Assembly: GCA_965368975.1 (NCBI GenBank)
Contig: CBDUPA010000015.1
Location: 32,001 to 96,000, forward strand
DNA: 64,000 nt
Reading direction: 5' to 3'
DNA from: an uncultured bacterium
GTDB taxonomy: Bacteria > Acidobacteriota > Thermoanaerobaculia > Multivoradales > JAHZIX01
Shown: positions 22,867 through 44,377 of the stretch, in pieces
Numbering within the stretch: position 1 is the stretch's first letter
Layout: each line of letters opens with the position of its first letter
The notes under the pieces: generated by a model
What the model saw: only the letters and a program-made list of their open reading frames with translations
Databases searched by the model: none
What the model was told of the DNA's origin: nothing
Translations under genes and position numbers: made by a program

Positions 22867-23113
22867 ACTGATCTCCTTACGGATAGTGGTTGACGATACC
22901 GACATTCAACATATCGGAGCATACGGACAAGAGGCTGTCAAGTTCCACGGGGGCAGCAGCAGAACTACATAAGATAAACAAAATAATGGACTTACCCTCT
23001 TTCGAAAGTTCTTGCCCGCCACTCACTCTCGACGCCTGTAGTAGAGTCTCACCGGCAAGCATCAGGGGTAGGAAGTCGCGAATCGGAGATCTTTCTGGGT
23101 GAACGGGAACGCC

Positions 23114-25567
23114 ATGAGCGAATGGGTACAGACGGTGCGCAGGCTGCGGCGGCACGCAGGGTTTTCGCTAGCCATCGTGGTGACGTTGGCGTTGGCGATC
23201 GCCGCGACCGTGACGGTCGTCAGTCTGGTGCGCGGCATCCTGCTGCACCAGCTGCCCTACCCCGAGGCCCACCGGGTACTCGAGATCGACCATGCGGCAC
23301 CGGGCTTCGATCTCGATCGGATCGGCATCTCGCCCACGCTCTACCGGCACTACGCCCAGCTGCCCGCCCTGTTCGAGCACATCGGCCTGTATGGAGAGAT
23401 GGAGCTGACGCTCACCGGCGGCGATCTACCGCTACGCATCGCTGCGGCTCGCGCGACCCCCAGCCTGTTCCGCGTGCTCGGCGTCGACCCCGTCCACGGC
23501 CGCACCTTCACGGACGTCGAGGGCACCCCTGGCGCCGCACCGGTGGTACTCCTCAGCCACGGTCTGTGGCAAAGCGACTACGGTGGCGACGAGAGCGTAG
23601 TCGGCCGGCAGATGCGCATTGACGGCGTTGCCAGGCAGGTGGTCGGCATCATGCCCGCAGATTTCGAGTTTCCGTCACCGCAAACCCGACTGTGGGTACC
23701 ACTGGTGGTCGAACCGATCCCCGGGCGACTCGGCTACTTCACCGAGCGCTGCGTCGCCAGGCTGGCGGATGGGGTGCCCCTGGAGACGGCCGACGCGCGG
23801 CTGCGGCTGGTAACTTCGGACTTGATCGGTACCTTCCCGGGCGAGAGTGCCGCCAAGACGTTCCAGGATGCCGGCACCCGTCCGAACTTGAGCACACGTC
23901 TGGAGTACATCGTCGGCAGCGTGCGTACCGTGCTCTGGATATTGGTCGCGGCGGTGAGTCTGATCCTGGTGATCGCCGCCGCCAACGTCGCCAACCTCTT
24001 CCTGGTGCGGCTCGAAACCCGTGGCCACGAACTCGCCATCCGCAGTGCTCTCGGCGGCGGCCGACGTTCCCTGCTGCGCACCATCAGCCAGGAATGCCTG
24101 CTCCTAGCCGCCGCGGCCGGTGTTGGTGCACTGGTCCTGACCAGCTGGATCCTCGGTCTCATCGCGCGCCTCGGACCGCAGACCCTGCCACGCTTGCAGG
24201 AAGTCCAACTCGACACCGGGGCCGTGCTGACGACTTTGGTTGGCGCCGCCCTCGTCACCTGGTGCGCCGGCGTACTACCAGCCCTGAACAGTACGCGCGG
24301 AGACCTGGCGCCGGCACTGCACGAAGGTGGTCGTACCTCCGCCAGCCGTGAGCGCAACCGCTTGCGGGGGTCCCTGGTCGTCGCTCAGGTCGCTCTCAGC
24401 CTCGTATTGTTGATCGCCTGCAGCCTGGTGCTGCGCAGCCTCATCGCCGTGCAGGCGGTCGATCCCGGCTTCCGTGCGGACGGAGCCGTCACGTTCCAGC
24501 TATCCCTCCCCGAGACCGACTACCCGGATGCCGAGAGTCGCACCCGCTTCGTCGAGCAAGCACGACAACGGCTCAGCACTCTGCCCGGCGTGTCCGCCGT
24601 CGGTGCGGCCGGCTACTTGCCGCTGACCAACGGCCTCGACGGCTCCGGCTATGCCTTCGAAGACGCGACGGTGACGGAAGGCGACGCGCCGCTCATCTTT
24701 CTCGACACCAAGACCAGCCCCGGCTACTTCGAGGCCATGGGCATCCCTCTCGTCGAAGGCACCTTGCCGGGCGAAGACAACTACCGCCTGCGCAAGGCTG
24801 AGATCGTCGTCAGCCAGTCGATCGCCCGGCGCTTCTGGCCCGACGGCAGCGCCCTGGGCAAGCGCACCAAGGTCGGTGACCGCACGCGCAGCAGCTGGTA
24901 CACGGTCGTCGCGGTGGTCGGCGACGTGCGCCTATCAGGTCTCGAACTGCCAGCGGACGACATGGTCTACCTGCCGCTGCTGGGCGGCGCGGAGGGCTTA
25001 CAAGACCTCGGTCCGGCGGTGTCCTTCGTCTTGCGCTCCAAGCTGCCAGCCAGTTCCCTGGCGGCGCCCATCCGCAGCGAGATCGCCACCCTCGACCCCA
25101 GCCTCCCGATCACCCTCATCCGGCCGCTGGGAGATCTATTGCGCGACGCGCGCGCCAGCAAAGCGTTCATCTTCACTGTACTGCTGCTGGCGGCGTCGAT
25201 GGCACTGATCCTCGCCGCCGTCGGTCTCTACGGCGTCCTCGCCTACCTGGTCAGTCGGCGCACGCGCGAACTCGGCCTGCGCATGGCCCTGGGCGCGGAC
25301 GGTGGTCGCATTCGCACTTTGGTGCTGCGGCAAGGACTGCGACTGGCGACGCTGGGCGCTGGCCTCGGTCTGATCCTGGCGCTGGCACTCAGCATCGTGC
25401 TCGAGTCTCAGCTCAGCGCGTCTCTGCTCTACGAAGTCGAAGCCCGCGATCCTCTGACCTTCCTCGTCGTGCCCGCCGGTCTCCTGCTGGTCGCCTTCTT
25501 GGCTACCTACGTCCCGGCCTGGCGCGCATCGAGGGTCGACCCGTTGGAGGCTTTGCGCCAGGATTGA
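23114..25567 (+). CDS. ADOP-type duplicated MacB/FtsX ABC permease
   Basis: TLALAIAA, AAANVANLFL, ELAIRSALG, ELGLRMALGA and PAWRASRVDPLEALR motifs. Confidence 0.9.
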   Translation: MSEWVQTVRRLRRHAGFSLAIVVTLALAIAATVTVVSLVRGILLHQLPYPEAHRVLEIDHAAPGFDLDRIGISPTLYRHYAQLPALFEHIGLYGEMELTLTGGDLPLRIAAARATPSLFRVLGVDPVHGRTFTDVEGTPGAAPVVLLSHGLWQSDYGGDESVVGRQMRIDGVARQVVGIMPADFEFPSPQTRLWVPLVVEPIPGRLGYFTERCVARLADGVPLETADARLRLVTSDLIGTFPGESAAKTFQDAGTRPNLSTRLEYIVGSVRTVLWILVAAVSLILVIAAANVANLFLVRLETRGHELAIRSALGGGRRSLLRTISQECLLLAAAAGVGALVLTSWILGLIARLGPQTLPRLQEVQLDTGAVLTTLVGAALVTWCAGVLPALNSTRGDLAPALHEGGRTSASRERNRLRGSLVVAQVALSLVLLIACSLVLRSLIAVQAVDPGFRADGAVTFQLSLPETDYPDAESRTRFVEQARQRLSTLPGVSAVGAAGYLPLTNGLDGSGYAFEDATVTEGDAPLIFLDTKTSPGYFEAMGIPLVEGTLPGEDNYRLRKAEIVVSQSIARRFWPDGSALGKRTKVGDRTRSSWYTVVAVVGDVRLSGLELPADDMVYLPLLGGAEGLQDLGPAVSFVLRSKLPASSLAAPIRSEIATLDPSLPITLIRPLGDLLRDARASKAFIFTVLLLAASMALILAAVGLYGVLAYLVSRRTRELGLRMALGADGGRIRTLVLRQGLRLATLGAGLGLILALALSIVLESQLSASLLYEVEARDPLTFLVVPAGLLLVAFLATYVPAWRASRVDPLEALRQD

Positions 25568-30262: not shown

Positions 30263-31045
30263 TCAAGGTCCCGTGTTCGGCAGACGGCTCTCCACAGGAC
30301 GACTCTCCCGCAGAAGACCGTGGTCGAGCGTCCAGATACGGTCCGCCAAGCCGACCATCTCGCGACTGTGAGTGACCATCAACAGCGTCTTGCCAGCGCG
30401 CCGCGTCAAGCGATCCAGCAGGTCCAGGACCTGGGCCCCCGTGTCGATATCGAGATTGCCCGTCGGCTCGTCAGCCAGCACCAAGTGCGGATCGTGCGAC
30501 AGGGCGCGAGCGATCGCCACACGTTGCTGCTCGCCGCCGGAGAGCCGGTCCGGGAAGCTCTGCGCTCGGTCGGCCAGTCCGACCTCGTCGAGCAGCGCCA
30601 GCGCCGCTTGCCGCGTCGCGTTGTCGAGTCGCCCTTGCAGTTCCAGCGGCAACAGCAAGTTCTCCTCGACGGTGAGCGTCGGGATGAGGTTGAAGAACTG
30701 GAAGACAAAGCCGATGTGGTCGCGACGCAGCAGCGTGCGCTCTTCCTCGTCGAGTTCGTGCAACTGGCGGCCGGCGATCTCGACCTGCCCCGAGGTCGGC
30801 CGATCCATGCCACCGACGAGATTCAGCAGGGTCGACTTGCCGCTACCACTCTTGCCGACCAGCACCACGAAGTCACCCCGACCGATCTCGGCGTCCACGC
30901 CGCGCAGGATCTGGCGCTCCTGCCCGCCTTCCCGATAACTCTTGGTTAGAGCCCGCAGGCGAACGACGATGTCGGACGCCCCATCGTGGGTCGCGTCCTG
31001 TACGGGAGGCTCGAGGCGTGGGGCCATGTTGGCGGGATCGGGCAT
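30263..31045 (-). CDS. ABC transporter ATP-binding protein (LolD/MacB-like, AttE-type)
   Basis: [33 protein letters not shown] and VTH motifs; GGAG RBS before the ATG at 31045. Confidence 0.92.
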
Positions 31046-31525
31046 GTCGACTTGTCTCCTCTCCCTGCAGTTCGTGCACATCGTGCCTCGGATTCACCAC
31101 GAGGTGCCATTTCCGCACACCGGTCAAACGCCCGTTTCAACCCCACGCCGACACAAGAAGCCTCGAATGCACCAAGACTCAAACGCAAGTGACGATTCAA
31201 CAAGGACTTAGGAGTCTCTCTGCCGCCACGAGGCGGGGCGAACCAAGAACTGGCACGCCAGTTGCATTAAGAATGAGCAACGACGGGCTCACAAGCCCTG
31301 AACACCTTCCGAAAAACCCTGACGGTTCTACCGTCAGCCAGTCATACTACCTACCTACCTTTCCCACCAAAATAGCCTACCAAACGGCCACCCCGGATTA
31401 TAGGGGTGGCCCCGCCGATTCCCCTCTGTTCGGCCGCTCACCCCGCTCCCTCGACGGTTCTGCACAGCGACACTTCCTGGTCGCGGCTGATTCCATCAGC
31501 TTCTGAAAAAGTACTCGCGAAAGTC

Positions 31526-31553
31526 TTGACTGGCACGGTTGCAGCGCTATAAT
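31526..31553 (+). promoter_or_regulatory. sigma70-like promoter with no downstream ORF
   Basis: TTGACT (31526-31531), 16-bp spacer, TATAAT (31548-31553). Confidence 0.65.
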
Positions 31554-31559
31554 GGTCTC

Positions 31560-31885
31560 AACCATCGAGAGGGTCTTGGACGTGCCCGCTCTTTACTCGC
31601 ACCGCTTCCCTGAACGTTAGAACGTGCAGGGCGCATCGCGGGAGAGTCGTACCAACCAAAGAGCCATGACCATCGACACTCCGCCAGTCAGAGCTCCCCA
31701 ACGGAACTCTTCCTGGTGAATCGTCTAACCGGTCGACATCTTGAGAACCTCAAGGTTCTTAGCCTGTCAGCGGAAACGTGTCGAAAGGTTATCCGGTCCT
31801 TGAACGACCTACCCAACTGATGGCTTGCAAGCCTGGGCAGAGTTCCGACGATTCAGTTCGAGCGGGACGGCACAAGCTGGCAGGC
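31560..31885 (+). ncRNA. Candidate large structured non-coding RNA of unrecognised class
   Basis: Follows the promoter; many complementary segments, including crossing pairings 31702-31710/31839-31847 and 31717-31724/31848-31855; GAAA-capped hairpin; no credible ORF. Confidence 0.55.
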
Positions 31886-32149
31886 TCCCTTCCCATGAAG
31901 TACCTACCTTGTTCGGCCGCCCTTGGAGGCTGGAAGCCCGATCGGGATTCCGGATTACAGGGGTGGCCCCGCCGATTTGTTTGTTCGCTAGAAGCGCGAA
32001 GCAGAGTATACACCGGCCCCACCGAGCTTTGACAAGGGCTGACGACAGATTTTTCCGCATTTTGTCGTCTTCATGCCACTTTGGCACGAAGAAGCGGACG
32101 AGCGTTCGTTTCACTTTCCGACGACCGATCACCTAGGGACAAGCCACGC

Positions 32150-33502
32150 TCACGACGGTAAAGGCCCGGTATAGCGGGCGCGCGGACGGATCAGCCGGTC
32201 CATCTGGTACTGCTCGATCGCCTGCCCCAACCAACCAGCCGAGCGCCCGAGCGCGAAAACGGCCATGCCGCCACCGGCAGGTAGACCGAGAACACGCCCG
32301 AGGAGCCACAGGCCAAGGTCGATCGTCGGCTCGGCGTCGAGCAGTTCACGGGCGACATCAGTGAGCGCCGCCGCGAAGCGCACGTCTTGCTGCCCCACCT
32401 GAGTAGCGGCCGGAGCCGAGGATCGCAGTAGATCGAGAAGCAAGCTCGCACGCGGATCGCCGCTCGGGTACATTGGGTGCCCGAAGCCCGGGATCTCGTC
32501 GCCCCGACGCAGCCGATCCACCACCACCCGGCGCACCGCCGCGGTCGGCGACGCACCGCCACCACTGGCGTAGGCATCTTGCGCCTCCCGCAGGAAGGCC
32601 TCGACACGACCGATCACCCCGCCATGCTTGACGCCCTTGAGCGCGGCCAGGCCGGCACTGACGACTTCGTACGGCGTAGCGCCCGCCGAGGCGACACAGC
32701 GGGCGGTGAAGGCGGACACGTTGAGTTCGTGGTCGGCACACAGGATCAGCGCGGCTTGCAGCAACTGCACCGCGTCCGGCCCGTGCTGCGGCGACCAAGC
32801 ACGGGCGAGGGTCGCCGCAGCGCCACCTTGGCGCGCCGGCAGCGGCACACTACCGGCCAGCGTCGCCGCCAGCGTCGACAGAATGCGCGCGCCAGTCGCA
32901 GCCACCGCCGACGGCCGTAGATCGAGCGCGCGCAAGTCGTTTCGTCCCGTCAAAGGCAAGACCACCTGGCAGCGTTCCACCGGTTCGAGTTCCGCCAGCA
33001 GGGGCACCCAACGCGCGGCGACAGCAGGAGCGCCGCCAGCGTCAGCAGAAACTCCGCCCGCTCCAGAAGACAGTCCCAGTTCCGCGTCTGGGTCCCCGGT
33101 CCACAGCAACGCCGCCACCCGCTCGAAGGTCTCCTCGCGTGCCAGCCGCGTCGCTTCGTGACCGCGGTAGTAGAGCTTGCCGTCGCGGATGAGCGTGATC
33201 GACGACTCCAGCACCGGCGCACCGTAGTGCAAGCTCTCCGCAACCGCCTTGTCCGGCTCGCGTCGCAACTGGCGACGACTGCGCAAGTGCTCGATATCTT
33301 CGAGGTGGTACTGGCGCTCGCGCCGTCCCGGTTGGCCCGCCTCGGAACGGATCAGGCCGCGGCTGACGTAGGCGTAGAGCGTCGCCCGGCTGATTCCCAG
33401 CTGCGCAGCGGCTTCACCGGCGCTCAGGTAGCGGGAATCTCGGCCAGACTCGGCTTCACGGGTCAGGGTGGCTTCGCGGGGCAGGAGGGCATCCTTGTCC
33501 AT
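32150..33502 (-). CDS. HTH-citrate synthase fusion (probable citrate-responsive regulator)
   Basis: N-terminal excisionase-like HTH (LSAGEAAAQLGISRATLYAYVSRGLI) plus citrate synthase fold (DHELNVSAF, KHGG, GFGHPMYPSGDPR). Confidence 0.85.
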   Translation of the reverse strand: MDKDALLPREATLTREAESGRDSRYLSAGEAAAQLGISRATLYAYVSRGLIRSEAGQPGRRERQYHLEDIEHLRSRRQLRREPDKAVAESLHYGAPVLESSITLIRDGKLYYRGHEATRLAREETFERVAALLWTGDPDAELGLSSGAGGVSADAGGAPAVAARWVPLLAELEPVERCQVVLPLTGRNDLRALDLRPSAVAATGARILSTLAATLAGSVPLPARQGGAAATLARAWSPQHGPDAVQLLQAALILCADHELNVSAFTARCVASAGATPYEVVSAGLAALKGVKHGGVIGRVEAFLREAQDAYASGGGASPTAAVRRVVVDRLRRGDEIPGFGHPMYPSGDPRASLLLDLLRSSAPAATQVGQQDVRFAAALTDVARELLDAEPTIDLGLWLLGRVLGLPAGGGMAVFALGRSAGWLGQAIEQYQMDRLIRPRARYTGPLPS

Positions 33503-33520
33503 AGCTCAAGCCTAACAGAT

Positions 33521-33548
33521 TCAACATTGATCAGAAAATCAATATTGA
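33521..33548. promoter_or_regulatory. Tandem palindromic operators between the divergent citrate synthase-family genes
   Basis: TCAACATTGA (33521-33530) and TCAATATTGA (33539-33548). Confidence 0.65.
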
Positions 33549-33631
33549 CCACATAGACTTCCCCCTCCATACTGAAAGTGCTTCGAGCGTCAGCAATTCG
33601 GCTGCACGCGGCGCCCTTGGAGGATTCCTCG

Positions 33632-34906
33632 ATGCCCGAAACCGCCACCACTTCGACTCTCCATCTCGACTCTCGTCCCAGTTCCAACGGACTCGAGGGC
33701 GTGATCGCCGCCAGCACTCGCCTCAGCCGAGTCGACGGAGCCGCTGGCCGCCTGACCCTCGCCGGCTTTGCCGTCGAGGAACTGGCCCCCAGGGCCAGCT
33801 TCGAGGAGGTCACGTACCTGCTGTGGACCGACCGCCTTCCCACCTCGACCGAGTTACAGCAACTGCGTGCCGACCTGGCGCATCGCCGCTGCTTACCGGC
33901 AGCAACACTGGCATGGCTGCGGCATGCCGCAGCAGCCAAGGTCGCACCCATGGACGCGCTACGCACCGCTGCCGCCACGGTGTGCGCCGAGACAGCGGAC
34001 ATCTCCGACCCGCGCGACCAAGCACGCACTCTGCTGGCCGTGCTGCCGGTGGCTCTGGCCACTTATGAACGCCTGCGCCGTGGCGGTCGTTCTGGCGAGG
34101 ACGCAGCGCCGTCACAAGCCGAAATTGAAGCCCTGGGCGACGCCGACCTGGCCACCGGCTTCCTGACTCTGCTCGACGGCCCTCCGTCAACCAGGAGCAT
34201 CAGGCCACCGCGCCCACAGCGCGTGCGGGCGCTGACCACCTACCTGAACACCGTCGCCGACCACGGTCTCAACGCTTCGACCTTCACCGCTCGGGTGATC
34301 GTCGCCACCGGCTCGGACATGGTGTCAGCCGTCACCGGAGCCATCGGTGCGCTCAAAGGCCCGCTGCACGGCGGCGCACCAGGTCCCGCACTCGACGATC
34401 TGCTGGCGATCTCTGCAGGCGCGAGTGCCAGTACCGGCTCCAGTACGGGCGACGGCGACACTGCCGCCTACGCCGAAACCTACCTACGCGCCAAGCTGGC
34501 ACGCGGCGAGCGCCTGATGGGCTTCGGCCATCGCGTCTACCGCGTGCGCGATCCGCGCGCCGAGGTGCTGAACGCGGCCGCCGAAGCCTGGCTGAGCAGC
34601 GCCGGTGGTGATCGCGAACTCCTGCGCCTGGCTCGCGAGGTCGAGTCGACCGCGCTGCGCCTGCTCAGCGAGCACAAGCCGGACCGCAAGCTGCACACCA
34701 ACGTCGAGTTCTACACCGCGCTGCTGCTCCACAGTCTGGGCCTACCGTCCGACCTCTTCGCCCCCGTCTTCGCCCTCGGTCGTACCGCCGGCTGGATCGC
34801 GCACGCCCTGGAACAACTCGAGTACGGCCGCCTGATCCGGCCGAGCGCCACCTATATTGGTGAGGAAGGCCGCTCGTGGCAGCCACTCGGTTCGCGGACC
34901 GCGTGA
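33632..34906 (+). CDS. Citrate/2-methylcitrate synthase family protein
   Basis: GLEGV, DHGLNASTF, GPLHGGA, GFGHRVYRVRDPR and NVEFY motifs; GGAGGA RBS. Confidence 0.9.
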   Translation: MPETATTSTLHLDSRPSSNGLEGVIAASTRLSRVDGAAGRLTLAGFAVEELAPRASFEEVTYLLWTDRLPTSTELQQLRADLAHRRCLPAATLAWLRHAAAAKVAPMDALRTAAATVCAETADISDPRDQARTLLAVLPVALATYERLRRGGRSGEDAAPSQAEIEALGDADLATGFLTLLDGPPSTRSIRPPRPQRVRALTTYLNTVADHGLNASTFTARVIVATGSDMVSAVTGAIGALKGPLHGGAPGPALDDLLAISAGASASTGSSTGDGDTAAYAETYLRAKLARGERLMGFGHRVYRVRDPRAEVLNAAAEAWLSSAGGDRELLRLAREVESTALRLLSEHKPDRKLHTNVEFYTALLLHSLGLPSDLFAPVFALGRTAGWIAHALEQLEYGRLIRPSATYIGEEGRSWQPLGSRTA

Positions 34907-39318: not shown

Positions 39319-39453
39319 GACGCCGATACTGTCATTTCCCAATATATTTGAAAAGATCGGCACCTACCCCTCTCGACTGAGCAGTGAAACTTTCCACCCG
39401 CTGGTACGTTGTCAACGATGGATCCCCCATCGAACCGAGCCAGGAGCCCCGCC

Positions 39454-41916
39454 ATGTTGCAACTGCTACACGACTTCCGTCTCGCCCTGCGTAACCTCCG
39501 CAAGGCCCCCGGCTTCGCTGCCATCGCCATTCTGACCCTGGCACTCGGCATCGGCGCCAACAGCGCCATTTTCAGCGTGCTCTATCACGTCGTGCTGGAA
39601 CCACTGAACTACCCGCAAGCCGAGCGGCTGGTGATTGTGCGCAGCCAGTTCACCACCATGGGCTTTGACCAGTTCTGGGTGTCGGCGCCCGAGTACGAGG
39701 AATACCGTGACGGTAGCAGCAGCTACGCCGCGCTGGGGGCCTACACCACGGGTTCGGCCAACCTGAGCACGCGCGGGGAACCGGTGCGCGCGCAGGCCGG
39801 CTACTTCACACGCTCACTGCTCGACGTGCTACAGCCGCGCGCCCAGCTCGGACGCCTGGTGAGCGCCGAAGAAGACTCACCTGCCGGTGGTTGGACGGTG
39901 ATGCTCAGCCACAGCCTGTGGCAGCGAGCTTACGGCGGTGATCCCGACATCGTCGGCCAGACCTTCGACGTCGACGGCACGGCAGCGACCGTGGTCGGCA
40001 TCCTGGAACCCGGCTTCGACCTACCGGACGAGAGCATCGAACTGTGGATACCGCTACGCCTCGACCCGGCCAATCCGCGGCCACGCAGCAATCACTTCCT
40101 GGAGATTCTGGGCCGCCTGAAGCCCGCGGTCACGCTGGAGCAAGCGCGTGCCGAGCTCGACCCGCTGCTCAACGGCTTCGAAGAATTCCAGGCCGACCAG
40201 CACACGCTCAACGCCTCGACACACCGCCTGCGCATCGACCCGCTGCACGACGACGTCATCGGCGCCGTCAAGCCACAGGTCCTCCTGCTCACCGGCGCCG
40301 TCGCACTGGTGCTGCTGATCGCCTGCGCCAACGTCGGCAACCTGCTGCTGGCGCGCGCCGAGTCGCGCCAGCGCGAGATCTCGGTGCGCACCGCGCTCGG
40401 GGCTGGCCGCCGTCACTTGCTGCGTCAGTTCCTCACCGAGGGCCTGCTGCTGGCTGGCCTCGGCGCCATGCTCGGCACCGCCCTGGCCGCCTGGGGCCTG
40501 CGCCTGCTGCTGGCCGCCGACCCGGAGAGCGTACCGCGCTCGGCTGAGATCGCCCTCGACGTACGGGTACTCGCCTTCACCCTGGCTTTGACCCTGGTCA
40601 CCGGCCTCATCTTCGGCCTGGCGCCGATGCTGCACCTGCGCGGCAGTCACTCCGGCGCGCGGCTCAGCGAGGCCCTCAAGGAGGGTGGACAACGCACGAC
40701 CGCGCAGGCACATCGCTTGCGCCTGCGGCGCGGCCTGGTAGTGCTGGAAGTAGCGCTGGCGGTGATCCTGGTCGTCGGCGCCGGTCTGCTGCTGCGCAGC
40801 TTCTGGAACCTGATGAAAGTCGATCCCGGTTTCGACGCCAACGGCCTGCTGACGTTCCGCCTGGAACTCGACTTCAGCTCGTACCCCGAGATCGATCAGC
40901 AGATGGGCTTCTACGAGCGCCTGACGCAGCGCCTGGCAGCCACGCCGGGAGTTGAGGACGTCACCTTCATGAGCGGCCTGCCACCACGCCGCCGCCTCGA
41001 CGCCAACGACACCGAATTCGACGGCAAGCCGTCGAGCGAGGAAACCGGCGTGCCGTCGGTCACCGATTTCTGGCAGTTCACGCGCCCCGGTTACTTCCAG
41101 GCCATGGGTATCCCGATCGTGCAGGGCGAGGCTTTCAGCCGTCAGCACGACGCCGAGGGCACGCTGGCGGTGGTGATCAACCAGACGCTGGCCGAACGCG
41201 TCTGGCCGGGCGAGGATCCAATCGGCCAGCGCTTGCGACCTGGCTTCGGTGACCTGCCGTGGTTCACCGTCATCGGGGTGGCACGCGACGTCAAGCAGGA
41301 CGGTCTCGATCGACCGACCGGCACCGAACTCTATTTCTCCTACCCACAGGTCGCCGAGCGATTGGGTTTCGCACCGCGGGCCATGTGGCTGGCGCTGCGC
41401 TCGGACTTGCCGCTGGCAACGCTTCTACCATCGGTGCGCCGGGACGTGCGCGAGGCCGATTCCACCTTGCCCATCGCGCGCCCGCGCATGATGGAGGATG
41501 TGCTGCGCAACTCCGTGGCACAGTCGCGCTTCATCGCCCTGCTGGTGATCCTTTTCGGCGCCGCCGCCCTGCTGCTGGCGGCGGTCGGTACCTACGGCGT
41601 GCTCGCCTACATCGTCACCGAACGACGCCAGGAGATCGGCATCCGTATGGCCCTGGGCGCCAACCGCGGCAGCGTGCTGGGCATGGTGCTCGCTCAGGGT
41701 ATGCGGGTCACCGTCCTCGGTCTGCTGATCGGACTCGCTGCGTCGTGGATGCTGGTGCGCCTGGCCGAGAGCGCGCTGTTCGGCATCCAACCCCACGATC
41801 CACTGACCTTCGCCGCCGTCACACTGCTGATCGCCGCCGTCGCGGCGGCGGCCTGCTACCTGCCAGCTTGGCGCGCCACTCGTGTCCAGCCGGTCGAAGT
41901 CCTACGCGACGAATAG
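39454..41916 (+). CDS. ADOP-type duplicated MacB/FtsX ABC permease
   Basis: DFRLALRNLRKAPGF, TLALGIGANSAIFS, LIACANVGNLLLAR and EIGIRMALGA motifs. Confidence 0.92.
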   Translation: MLQLLHDFRLALRNLRKAPGFAAIAILTLALGIGANSAIFSVLYHVVLEPLNYPQAERLVIVRSQFTTMGFDQFWVSAPEYEEYRDGSSSYAALGAYTTGSANLSTRGEPVRAQAGYFTRSLLDVLQPRAQLGRLVSAEEDSPAGGWTVMLSHSLWQRAYGGDPDIVGQTFDVDGTAATVVGILEPGFDLPDESIELWIPLRLDPANPRPRSNHFLEILGRLKPAVTLEQARAELDPLLNGFEEFQADQHTLNASTHRLRIDPLHDDVIGAVKPQVLLLTGAVALVLLIACANVGNLLLARAESRQREISVRTALGAGRRHLLRQFLTEGLLLAGLGAMLGTALAAWGLRLLLAADPESVPRSAEIALDVRVLAFTLALTLVTGLIFGLAPMLHLRGSHSGARLSEALKEGGQRTTAQAHRLRLRRGLVVLEVALAVILVVGAGLLLRSFWNLMKVDPGFDANGLLTFRLELDFSSYPEIDQQMGFYERLTQRLAATPGVEDVTFMSGLPPRRRLDANDTEFDGKPSSEETGVPSVTDFWQFTRPGYFQAMGIPIVQGEAFSRQHDAEGTLAVVINQTLAERVWPGEDPIGQRLRPGFGDLPWFTVIGVARDVKQDGLDRPTGTELYFSYPQVAERLGFAPRAMWLALRSDLPLATLLPSVRRDVREADSTLPIARPRMMEDVLRNSVAQSRFIALLVILFGAAALLLAAVGTYGVLAYIVTERRQEIGIRMALGANRGSVLGMVLAQGMRVTVLGLLIGLAASWMLVRLAESALFGIQPHDPLTFAAVTLLIAAVAAAACYLPAWRATRVQPVEVLRDE

Positions 41917-41965
41917 ACTCGAGAACAGCACACACACCCACAGCCGACCGAGGAGAGCCGCCCCG

Positions 41966-44377
41966 ATGTCTACCCTGCTACACGACGTTCGCTTCGCTCT
42001 GCGCACCCTGCGCAAGCGTCCCGGCTTCGCCGCCGTCGCGGTGCTCACCCTGGCCCTCGGCGTCGGTGCCAACAGTGCCATCTTCAGCGCTGTACACGCC
42101 GTGCTGCTGGCACCGCTGCCCTACCAGGACGCCGACCGGCTGTCTCTGCTGTGGATGGACAACACGCGCCTGGGCATCGAGCAGGACATCACCTCCTGGC
42201 CCAATTTCGAGGACTGGCGTGCCGGCGGCACCCTATTCGAGGAGTTCGCCACCTACAGCCCGATGCGCATCAACCTGACCGAAGGCGATGGCGGTCCCGT
42301 GCGCATCCCGGCCGCCGAAGTGAGCGCCAACTTCCTGCCTCTGCTCGGCGTGCGGCCCGTGCTCGGCGAAGGCTTCACCGCCGAGCACGAGATCCCCGGC
42401 AACGAGAACGTCGTGCTGCTCGGTCATGACCTGTGGCAAGGGCGCTTCGGTGCTGATCCGTCGTGGATCGGCCGCACCCTGCAGCTGAACAACACCAGCT
42501 ACACCGTGCTCGGCGTGCTGCCGCCGGAGCTCGACTTCCCCAACCAACCGCAGCTGCTCGGCCCGATGGCGGTGAGCGAGGACCTTCGCGCCGAGCGCTT
42601 CGCCTTCTGGCTCTACGTGGTCGGCAAGCTGCGCCCCGGCGTCGACGGCGCCGAGGCCCAACGGCAGATGGACACTGTGGCACTGGAGATGGCAGAGGCG
42701 AATTCCGACCTCGAAGGCTACGGCATCTTCGTCCAACCGCTGCGCGAGCACCTCGTCGGCGATACACGCACGCCTCTGCTGCTCCTGCTCGGGGCCGTCG
42801 GCCTGGTGCTGCTCATCGCCTGCGCCAACGTCGCCAACCTACTCCTGGCGCGTGCCGCGGGTCGACGTCGCGAGATCGCCGTGCGCCTGTCACTCGGCGC
42901 CAGCCGACGTCGCCTGGTGCGCCAGCTGCTGACCGAGAGCGCTGTCCTGGCCCTGCTCGGTGGCGCGCTCGGCCTGCTCGTGGCCCACTGGGGACTGGCG
43001 TTCCTGAGCGCCTTCGGCCCCGACGTACTGCAGCGCCTGGGTCCCTTGAAGATCGACCCACTCGTCCTCGCCCTCGCTCTCGGCTTGAGCCTGCTGACAG
43101 GCCTCCTCGTCGGCCTGGTCCCGGCCCTGCAAGCCTCTCGCGCCGAGCTGAACGAGGCGTTGCAAGAAGGTGGTCGCGACGCCGCCGACACGACCCGCGT
43201 GGGTACTCGCCGACTGCTGATCACCGCCGAGGTCGCGCTCACCGCCCTGCTACTCATAGGTGCCGCCCTGCTGATCCAGAGCTTCGTCCACCTCCGAACG
43301 CAAGATCCTGGCTTCCGGCCCGACGGTGTCGTCGCCATGAGCCTCTCCCTACCCGCTAGCATCGAACGGGCCCAGCGGGCCCCTTTCTACACCCAGTTAC
43401 TCGAGCGTATCGACGCCGTGCCCGGCATCGAAGACAGCGCCGCCATCTCGACAATCTTGCTACCCGAGTTGGCTCGCTCCGCCAACTTCACGCTCGAAGG
43501 CCGCCCCGACCCACCGGCCGCCGAGCGCATCGAAGTCCCAGTCGACGCGGTCACCCCCGGTGTCTTTCGCACGCTCGGTATTCCACTGCTCGAAGGACGC
43601 GACTTCAACTCGGGCGATCACACGGACGCCCCCAGCGTGGTGATCGTGAACCGCGCGCTCGCAGAGCGTTTTTTCCCCGACGGCAACACGATCGGCCAGC
43701 GCCTGGCCTATGGCAGCCAGGATCAGGAAGAAATCACCTGGCGCACCATCGTCGGCGTCGTCGGTGATGCTCGACGCACCTCCGTCGCCCGTAACGCCCG
43801 CCCCGCCACCTTCCTGCCCCACGCGCAGATACCGATGAACAACATGACCCTTGTCGCCCGCGCCACTGGCTCGCTCGATACCCTGGCCGGCCCCCTGCGC
43901 GCCGCCGTCTGGGATCTCGATCCGACGCTGCCAATCTCACGCCTGGAGACGCTCGAAGCCTCCCTCGCGGAGCGCCTGAGCGAGCGTCGCTTCCACACCT
44001 TCCTCTTCGGTGCCTTCGCCGCCGTCGCGCTCTTCCTGGCCGCCGTCGGCATCTACGGCGTGCTGGCACAGCTGGTGCAGAGCCGCACGCGCGAACTCGG
44101 CATCCGCATGGCTCTCGGCGCCGAACGCGGCAGCGTCGTGCGCCACGTGCTGTCTCAGGGCTTACACCCGGTGCTGCTCGGCCTGCTGCTCGCACTGGTA
44201 GGCGCCCTGGCCACTGCGCACCTGCTCGGTAGCCTGCTCTACGGCGTCGGCGCCTACGACCCCATCACCTTTGTCGTGGTGCCACTGCTGGTGCTGGTCG
44301 TCGCGGTGGCTGCCTGCCTCGTGCCGGCGCTGCGCGCGTCGCGGGTGGATCCGATGGTGGCGCTGCGCTGGGAGTGA
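41966..44377 (+). CDS. ADOP-type duplicated MacB/FtsX ABC permease (tandem paralog)
   Basis: DVRFALRTLRKRPGF, LIACANVANLLLAR and RASRVDPMVALRWE motifs; GAGGAG RBS. Confidence 0.92.
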   Translation: MSTLLHDVRFALRTLRKRPGFAAVAVLTLALGVGANSAIFSAVHAVLLAPLPYQDADRLSLLWMDNTRLGIEQDITSWPNFEDWRAGGTLFEEFATYSPMRINLTEGDGGPVRIPAAEVSANFLPLLGVRPVLGEGFTAEHEIPGNENVVLLGHDLWQGRFGADPSWIGRTLQLNNTSYTVLGVLPPELDFPNQPQLLGPMAVSEDLRAERFAFWLYVVGKLRPGVDGAEAQRQMDTVALEMAEANSDLEGYGIFVQPLREHLVGDTRTPLLLLLGAVGLVLLIACANVANLLLARAAGRRREIAVRLSLGASRRRLVRQLLTESAVLALLGGALGLLVAHWGLAFLSAFGPDVLQRLGPLKIDPLVLALALGLSLLTGLLVGLVPALQASRAELNEALQEGGRDAADTTRVGTRRLLITAEVALTALLLIGAALLIQSFVHLRTQDPGFRPDGVVAMSLSLPASIERAQRAPFYTQLLERIDAVPGIEDSAAISTILLPELARSANFTLEGRPDPPAAERIEVPVDAVTPGVFRTLGIPLLEGRDFNSGDHTDAPSVVIVNRALAERFFPDGNTIGQRLAYGSQDQEEITWRTIVGVVGDARRTSVARNARPATFLPHAQIPMNNMTLVARATGSLDTLAGPLRAAVWDLDPTLPISRLETLEASLAERLSERRFHTFLFGAFAAVALFLAAVGIYGVLAQLVQSRTRELGIRMALGAERGSVVRHVLSQGLHPVLLGLLLALVGALATAHLLGSLLYGVGAYDPITFVVVPLLVLVVAVAACLVPALRASRVDPMVALRWE

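Follow-up and report, generated by a model that had tools for sequence, protein, structure and literature searches.

An apparently undescribed sigma-54-dependent small RNA family in Acidobacteriota and an adjacent long non-coding candidate that may be its enlarged paralog

Introduction

Regulatory RNAs of Acidobacteriota are, to our knowledge, almost entirely uncharacterised. Among the described systems closest to the locus presented here, Qrr1-5 are sigma-54-dependent small RNAs (sRNAs), and RsaE/RoxS are sRNAs with C-rich motifs. The first RNA gene of our locus, sRNA1, resembles both in combining putative sigma-54 control with several C-rich single-stranded motifs between hairpins, but its motif is CCYACC, not CCCC or UCCC, and it has no match in Rfam. 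A different kind of parallel is offered by GlmY and GlmZ of Enterobacteriaceae, homologous sRNAs whose promoters are described as sigma-54-type, as overlapping sigma-54 and sigma-70 promoters with the same start, or as purely sigma-70-type, depending on the gene and the species (PMC3045617), and of which one sibling is described as a decoy for the protein partner of the other (PMC4152352). This pair is a precedent for the switch of promoter class and a model for the decoy role proposed below for X, the second candidate unit of the locus. However, there is no sequence relation between the two systems, and GlmY and GlmZ have similar lengths and are encoded at unlinked loci, while X is three times as long as its sibling and adjacent to it. 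For Acidobacteria, the table of a 2022 review contains only four annotated sRNAs (PMC9029176).

The intergenic gap and its surroundings

The window, i.e. the whole stretch of 64,000 nucleotides that was analysed, belongs to a genome of 7.13 Mb with 65.4% G+C. The locus lies in a gap between an ABC-transporter ATPase and a gene for an HTH_17/MerR-citrate-synthase-like protein (Table 1). Genes around X encode ABC transporter, citrate-synthase-like and radical SAM proteins, and no transposase, reverse transcriptase or ribozyme-associated gene was found in this neighbourhood. For the ATPase, the ATG at 31046, with GGAGAGGAG ahead of it, is a more likely start than the ORF's initial ATG at 31081 (31040-31081, minus strand). 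On the other side, a divergent pair occupies 32150-34906, comprising a fusion of HTH_17/MerR with a citrate-synthase-like part (450 aa, minus strand) and a citrate synthase (442 aa, plus strand). The closest relatives found for this pair come from Herpetosiphon, with 42-45% and 53% identity and the same arrangement, and the best matches of the 450-aa protein were Herpetosiphon at ~45% among genome contigs and 48% among metagenome contigs. The pair has the appearance of a cassette gained by horizontal transfer.

For nine ORFs in the gap, 31-162 codons long, GC3 is 0.54-0.62, versus 0.77-0.81 in the four flanking genes, and the three to four of them that were searched against Pfam (84-162 aa, the 84-aa ORF lying mostly within X) gave no match. 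Because their composition is not coding-like and Pfam matches are absent, we consider the gap non-coding, as had the sequence-only reading of this DNA, which saw no credible ORF there. Screening of public sequencing runs retrieved one DNA run with a small share of the sequence words, and no RNA run was listed; reads from one public DNA run assembled into a single contig of 151 nt, identical to 31382-31532.

Table 1. Coordinates of the features in and around the gap (positions in the window)
Feature	Position	Strand	Remarks
ABC-transporter ATPase ORF	30263-31081	-	left border of the gap
Sigma-54 promoter of sRNA1, TGGCACGCCAGTTGCA	31251-31266	+	-24 GG and -12 GC, canonical spacing
sRNA1, ~145 nt	31277-31422	+	nhmmer, model R1, covariation; start predicted from promoter spacing
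X promoter, TTGACT-16-TATAAT	31526-31553	+	sigma-70 type; 11/12 consensus positions
X, candidate non-coding unit, ~425 nt	about 31560-31985	+	putative transcript with presumed ends
5' part of X	31560-31663	+	presumed start in CAAC; z = -1.78
Central three-way-junction domain of X	31664-31796	+	MFE -51.5 kcal/mol; z = -4.44
Segments A and B	31702-31713 (A); 31717-31725 (B)	+	inverted repeats I10, I19
Segments A' and B'	31836-31847 (A'); 31847-31855 (B')	+	contiguous, one-base overlap
3' module of X, a homolog of the sRNA family's 3' end	31893-31985	+	direct repeat, local R1 match; z = -2.04
X terminator hairpin, GGCCGCCC.../...GGGGTGGCC	31915-31968	+	35-nt loop insertion; -37.3 kcal/mol
HTH_17/MerR-citrate-synthase-like gene	32150-33502	-	stop is the right border of the gap

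A conserved sigma-54-dependent small RNA family

The whole sRNA1 gene, promoter included, spans 31251-31422 (plus strand) upstream of X. The sequence-only reading had noticed X in the gap and overlooked this adjacent conserved gene, from which both ends of X appear to derive. The promoter is one of 27 TGGCA[CT]-N5-TTGC[AT] sites in the genome. The RNA opens with GCAAC and has two hairpins, after which come a single-stranded C-rich stretch carrying four CC[UCA]ACC motifs, a terminator hairpin formed by GGCCACCCC and GGGGTGGCC, and a CCCGCCG tail. The sequence folds better than its shuffles on the plus strand (z = -3.90), with z = -1.32 on the minus strand. A terminator scan of the gap called a single site (31319-31337, minus strand), which is the second sRNA1 hairpin on the wrong strand, and a Clostridiales-2 match (31281-31337, minus strand; 24.6 bits vs a threshold of 58.6) was rejected as the same hairpin read backwards.

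The gap was set against the sequence preceding the orthologous ABC operon in four other genomes of its family. Matches by nhmmer to positions 31216-31421 were found at two tandem places in genome G001 and at one in G005, and the copy in G002 was spotted by eye. The copies in relatives share the canonical sigma-54 promoter, GCAAC, two hairpins, CCUACC repeats and the same terminator arms, followed by CCCGCC. In G001, two full copies lie 422 nt apart, which shows that this sRNA gene does get duplicated in tandem.

A covariance model, R1, made from five sRNA copies scores sRNA1 at 144.5 bits and finds it as the single strong copy in its own genome. Across 150 other genomes of the order, R1 matched 5/5 genomes of the same family, f1, and all 22 of a second family, f6, as well as giving one weak match in family f10 (21.7 bits), which lacks the promoter and which we regard as false, and none in the other nine families. 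When 150 genomes of the class were searched, R1 gave two more low-scoring matches, 231-235 nt long, both in one genus of another family belonging to another order: L086 (G312:C5:133435-133669, minus strand) and L087 (G611:C17:255726-255956, minus strand). Both carry TGGCAC-N5-TTGCA and a GGCCRCC terminator, and on the basis of these elements the family may be wider than R1 detects.

The covariation alignment comprised 29 R1 matches with E below 1e-8, with member scores of 35.9-164 bits. In the second hairpin, each of the six pairs has substitutions in both strands. Pairing reaches 99% in the terminator and 94% of cells over the whole structure, vs 34-54% when the 3' partners are slid, in an alignment that was fitted to R1 and thereby favours the structure. 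Each of the 28 members for which the promoter was captured has GG-N10-GC with TGC at -12. The CC[UCA]ACC motif occurs 88 times in 4773 nt of family RNAs and never on the opposite strand, against a window background of about 1 per kb per strand, and 28 of the 29 members carry at least two such motifs. Rfam 15 gave no match in 18 loci of the family, and no description of it was found in a search of the literature on sigma-54/RpoN small RNAs in Acidobacteria. It is a genuine and, as it seems, hitherto undescribed family of sigma-54-dependent sRNAs. Such a family is a useful result and probably a better lead than X: present in every genome searched of its two families and missing from Rfam, it would provide a testable entry into sigma-54-linked post-transcriptional control in these soil bacteria.

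Extent of X and the ends shared with sRNA1

Downstream of sRNA1, a promoter, a non-coding stretch and a terminator hairpin together delimit X as a candidate stand-alone unit. The sequence-only reading had also proposed a non-coding unit with its own promoter, which the sequence analysis supports, but that reading placed the 3' limit at 31885, about 100 nt short of the end of the putative tail at ~31985. In the predicted fold, the 5' part forms a long irregular hairpin (31571-31665) with a CCCTG/CAGGG tip and holds CCAACC at 31652, with an unpaired probability of 0.73. The 3' module consists of CCTACC (31903), the terminator hairpin and then the CCCGCCGATTTGTTTGTT tail, U-rich to ~31985. The insertion in the terminator loop only lengthens the stem; the tail contains no canonical U-run and was not called as a terminator by the scan.

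X has both ends in common with sRNA1. At the 3' end, a direct repeat of 28 nt (31393-31420 and 31950-31977), identical at 27 positions, covers a terminator arm and the tail of both units, and none of 300 shuffles reached the score of the 3' alignment. Ahead of this repeat, CCTACCTTGTTCGGCCGCCC fits the family consensus CCUACC-NNNN-GGCCRCCCC, and the X terminator, GGCCRCCC/GGGGTGGCC with a CCCGCCG tail, follows the family pattern of GGCCRCCCC/GGGGYGGCC and then CCYGCC. At the 5' end, the two have ACTGGCACG in common and, after a 3-nt gap, GTTGCA, a score reached by 6 of 300 shuffles, and the presumed start of X in CAAC resembles the GCAAC with which family RNAs open. The motif is likewise present as CCTACC/CCAACC on the plus strand only: CC[TCA]ACC was counted three times in X (shuffle mean 0.51, P ~0.013) and zero times on its reverse strand. 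At four motif sites the ensemble gives unpaired probabilities of 0.73, 0.67, 0.42 and 0.70, so that three of the four are mostly unpaired.

X also departs from the family in several respects. Members measure ~145-210 nt, and the interior of X is unrelated to theirs; between the shared ends, its alignment score with sRNA1 (17) equals the shuffle mean. No full-length R1 match was found, the model aligning locally with the 3' module only (model positions 128-162, 6.3 bits, E = 0.45, with the 35-nt loop insertion). X contains no GGTAGG, and the possibility that it acts as a sponge by pairing with sRNA1 itself was rejected, as the duplex energy of -82.4 kcal/mol compares with -84.0 +/- 7.4 kcal/mol for shuffles.

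The promoter of X

The near-consensus promoter pointed out by the sequence-only reading is present, and a scan of 30900-32300 found no other promoter-like site, the expectation from shuffles being 0.2. Only 30 sites in the genome, both strands counted, reach at least 11/12, and 25 of them fall in non-coding gaps, outside coding-like ORFs; by our composition arithmetic, the chance of finding such a promoter in this gap is ~0.005. The same hexamers with the same spacing also occur at G000:C11:117442-117470 (plus strand), ~120 nt upstream of a putative rpsU (ribosomal protein S21, read by eye), which makes it plausible that promoters of this type serve strongly expressed genes in this organism.

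A decayed sigma-54 core overlaps this promoter, with TGGCACG at 31531-31537. TGGCAC and GC stand in the sigma-54 register, but the -12 element reads CAGC, without the TGC found in all captured family promoters, and TTGCA is shifted by 3 nt. With CAGC standing where the -12 element should be, the use of sigma-54 by X is doubtful. In the same 16-nt register, AGAACT...TAAGAA of sRNA1 stands opposite TTGACT...TATAAT of X. By our reading, sRNA1 matches the sigma-70 consensus there at 5/12 positions (6/12 at the best spacer) and family members reach at most 7/12, as compared with 11/12 in X.

Interior of X: homologs, synteny and known RNA classes

Within its own genome X is present in a single copy, no other being found by BLAST or nhmmer, which makes its earlier interpretation as a mobile RNA unlikely. 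A search for homologs in Acidobacteriota, suggested along with that interpretation, returned none for the ~300-nt interior. In 40 relatives, including all five other genomes of the family, the best non-self match was a 30-nt fragment with E = 0.011. In 400 genomes of the phylum, fragments of 23-45 nt at scattered query positions were found in ten genomes, with a best per-genome E of 4e-4, which we consider chance-level because it arises across 400 genomes; this set takes in the unpublished genome G173, with a chance-level match of 25 nt. No match to the interior was found in plasmids or phages, nothing resembling it occurs upstream of the orthologous ABC operon in the four family genomes, and an nhmmer search with X of every retrieved locus, the Herpetosiphon-like cassettes among them, gave the self-match only. 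A syntenic search from the right-hand side yielded no homolog of X because no close relative of the HTH-citrate-synthase protein was found. With no homolog of the interior found, there is no evidence of selection on the X RNA, and the view of X as a conserved large structured RNA is not supported.

The order of genes also breaks at X. In four of the five family relatives (G001, G003, G004 and G005) the sRNA is followed by a gene for a Zn-ribbon-like, Cys-rich protein of ~140 codons (L034 3170-3598; L033 2131-2550; also L043 and L044). In our genome, with a completeness of 99.3%, this gene was not found (tblastn at E <= 10 gave chance matches only), the gap holds no remnant of it, and the ortholog of the next neighbour in the order of the relatives lies on another contig, C3. 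Given this break, the interior of X may be rearrangement debris.

At gathering thresholds, Rfam 15 recognised in the whole window nothing but a tRNA at 299-370, and a search of 31050-32200 with 4227 families at E up to 10 produced chance-level matches only, the best inside X being dauA (17.6 bits vs a threshold of 45, E = 7.8). X has no match at the gathering threshold to RNase P, tmRNA, SRP, 6S, group I/II introns, OLE, GOLLD, HEARO or ROOL. The sequence-only reading had likewise seen no signature of RNase P, tmRNA, SRP or group I/II introns and had presumed X to be unrecognised, and the Rfam runs bear it out on both counts. Two further identities were rejected: 6S RNA, which the genome encodes at C2:19700-19888, and a MITE or IS-associated RNA, X being single-copy with no transposase or reverse transcriptase nearby.

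Overall, X folds only moderately better than shuffles, and the predictions do not tell its strands apart (31560-31990: -168.3 kcal/mol, z = -2.98 on the plus strand; -172.7 kcal/mol, z = -2.49 on the minus strand). The central domain, whose structure recurs in the fold of full-length X, is the sole part clearly beating chance, with z = -3.55 on the minus strand as well, and the following stretch (31796-31895) folds no better than shuffles (z = +0.42).

Origin and possible role of X

Our leading, though still tentative, reading is that X is a lineage-specific, enlarged and sigma-70-driven paralog of the adjacent sigma-54 sRNA gene. X would have arisen as a tandem second copy of this gene, retaining the promoter core, the 5' CAAC, the predicted single-stranded CCYACC motifs and the terminator, while its promoter would have been converted to a near-consensus sigma-70 type and ~300 nt of unrelated, partly structured sequence would have come to fill its middle. 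The sigma-70 RNA polymerase would then make X constitutively, and the C-rich CCYACC motifs displayed by X would be those of the sigma-54-controlled sRNA. Sharing these motifs, it would be expected to bind the G-rich sites in mRNAs, or the RNA-binding partner, that the sRNA binds, and might thus act as a second regulator or as a decoy, uncoupling the function of the sRNA from the sigma-54 signal. If X is expressed, the locus would represent a natural experiment in promoter-class switching and in the size expansion of an sRNA. Against this reading stand the lack of homologs found for the interior, the break in synteny, the similar folding of the two strands and the behaviour of R1, which fails on X as a whole and matches the 3' module alone. 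The 5' similarity to sRNA1 is weak, and the 3' similarity could stem from a duplicated terminator alone.

The main alternative, rather unlikely but serious, is that X is a functionless relic, either a disrupted second sRNA copy or a duplicated terminator with filler as its interior, whose promoter may fire and yield a product without a role. The disruption would be due, again with rather low probability, to the rearrangement that brought in the HTH-citrate-synthase cassette. In accordance with this, X is an orphan found in one genome only, synteny breaks at X and beside the pair with Herpetosiphon-like relatives (42-45% and 53%), the sigma-54 spacing is destroyed by the 3-nt gap, and shuffles fold as well as one half of the interior. 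On the other hand, to get from 5/12 to 11/12 takes six particular substitutions, suggesting that a sigma-70 promoter was selected for, the terminator is intact despite its 35-nt insertion, itself an extended stem, the central domain has a z of -4.44, and the CCYACC motifs have been kept. If X is not expressed, the locus would illustrate how a rearrangement scar with a promoter and dense complementarity can pass for a structured RNA.

A much bolder form of the paralog reading, and one we hold to be quite unlikely, sees in X a functional newborn large regulatory RNA, in which the sRNA scaffold received a structured insert of ~300 nt, with the three-way junction and possibly a B:B' contact, and which after the change from sigma-54 to sigma-70 would be made constitutively and sequester, as a decoy or sponge, the partner of the conserved sRNA. 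Were it true, the origin of a long structured bacterial RNA from a small one would have been caught in the act.

It is improbable that X works in cis, so that transcription convergent with the HTH-citrate-synthase gene dampens the latter and the sequence of the RNA is irrelevant; the route, equally improbable, would be transcriptional interference or antisense RNA from terminator read-through. The strong promoter does face the 3' end of the opposite-strand gene (stop at 32150), located ~165 nt past the X terminator, and the non-canonical tail, passed over by the terminator scan, would be compatible with read-through. However, the X terminator hairpin is long and stable, and of the type that ends the conserved sRNA.

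More improbable still is the proposal of the sequence-only reading that X represents a new large structured RNA class, be it a ribozyme, a switch or a mobile RNA, with a pseudoknot in the order A-B-A'-B' as its core. All the complementarities listed there exist, including the AGAACC/GGTTCT hairpin, and the crossing order is as stated, as in a classical H-type pseudoknot. A is complementary to A' over 12 nt (92%, duplex -15.8 kcal/mol) and B to B' over 9 nt (100%, -11.3 kcal/mol), and two crossed and abutting helices of this kind would be expected by chance with a probability of ~1e-4, a post-hoc estimate. Forcing A:A' or B:B' changes the energy from -166.2 kcal/mol to -160.3 or -159.7 kcal/mol, a cost of just ~6 of 166 kcal/mol, and X has no Rfam match. 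Nevertheless, both helices are absent from the nested ensemble (pairing probability 0), since homologs are missing there can be no covariation, and A is locked in a local hairpin of -17.1 kcal/mol within the central domain. The loop lengths do not fit the H-type either: A and B are separated by 3-6 nt, B and A' by 110 nt and A' and B' by 0 nt, and this 0-nt loop would have to cross a stem of 9-12 bp, by which we judge the classical stacked geometry to be impossible. The single copy argues against mobility, and neither ribozyme-associated nor mobility genes lie nearby. A side-by-side crossover arrangement of the two helices might still be feasible. B is predicted to be the unpaired junction strand of the well-folding central domain (unpaired probability 0.72), so that B:B' alone, added onto this domain as a tertiary contact, is conceivable. 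Taken together, nothing positive speaks for the pseudoknot apart from the complementarity, and A:A' and B:B' are at best alternative pairings and lie outside the explanation we prefer. Several segments of X have two possible partners: CAGAGCTCC at 31689 and CAGAGTTCC at 31838 are both complementary to A, and TCGACAC at 31672 and TCGACAT at 31733 are each complementary to GTGTCGA, which fits either a switch or the lack of a defined fold. The 9-mer of B', GACGATTCA, has a third copy at 31191-31199, upstream of the sRNA1 promoter, which we treat as chance because ~3-4 repeated 9-mers are expected in 1.4 kb.

Finally, that X is a gene for a very small protein or a dual-function RNA is scarcely credible: an SD-like GAGAGGG stands 8 nt before the GTG at 31582, which opens a candidate frame of 12 codons, and several frames of 20-34 codons exist, but no frame has coding composition, nothing is conserved, and the three gap ORFs of 84-107 aa have no Pfam match.

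Elsewhere in the window, several ADOP-type duplicated FtsX/MacB permease genes are located at 23099-25567 and 39409-44377. The ADOP permease family is linked to Acidobacteriota, and one of these permeases exceeds the ADOP cut-off of NCBIfam, in keeping with a probable origin of this DNA from Acidobacteriota.
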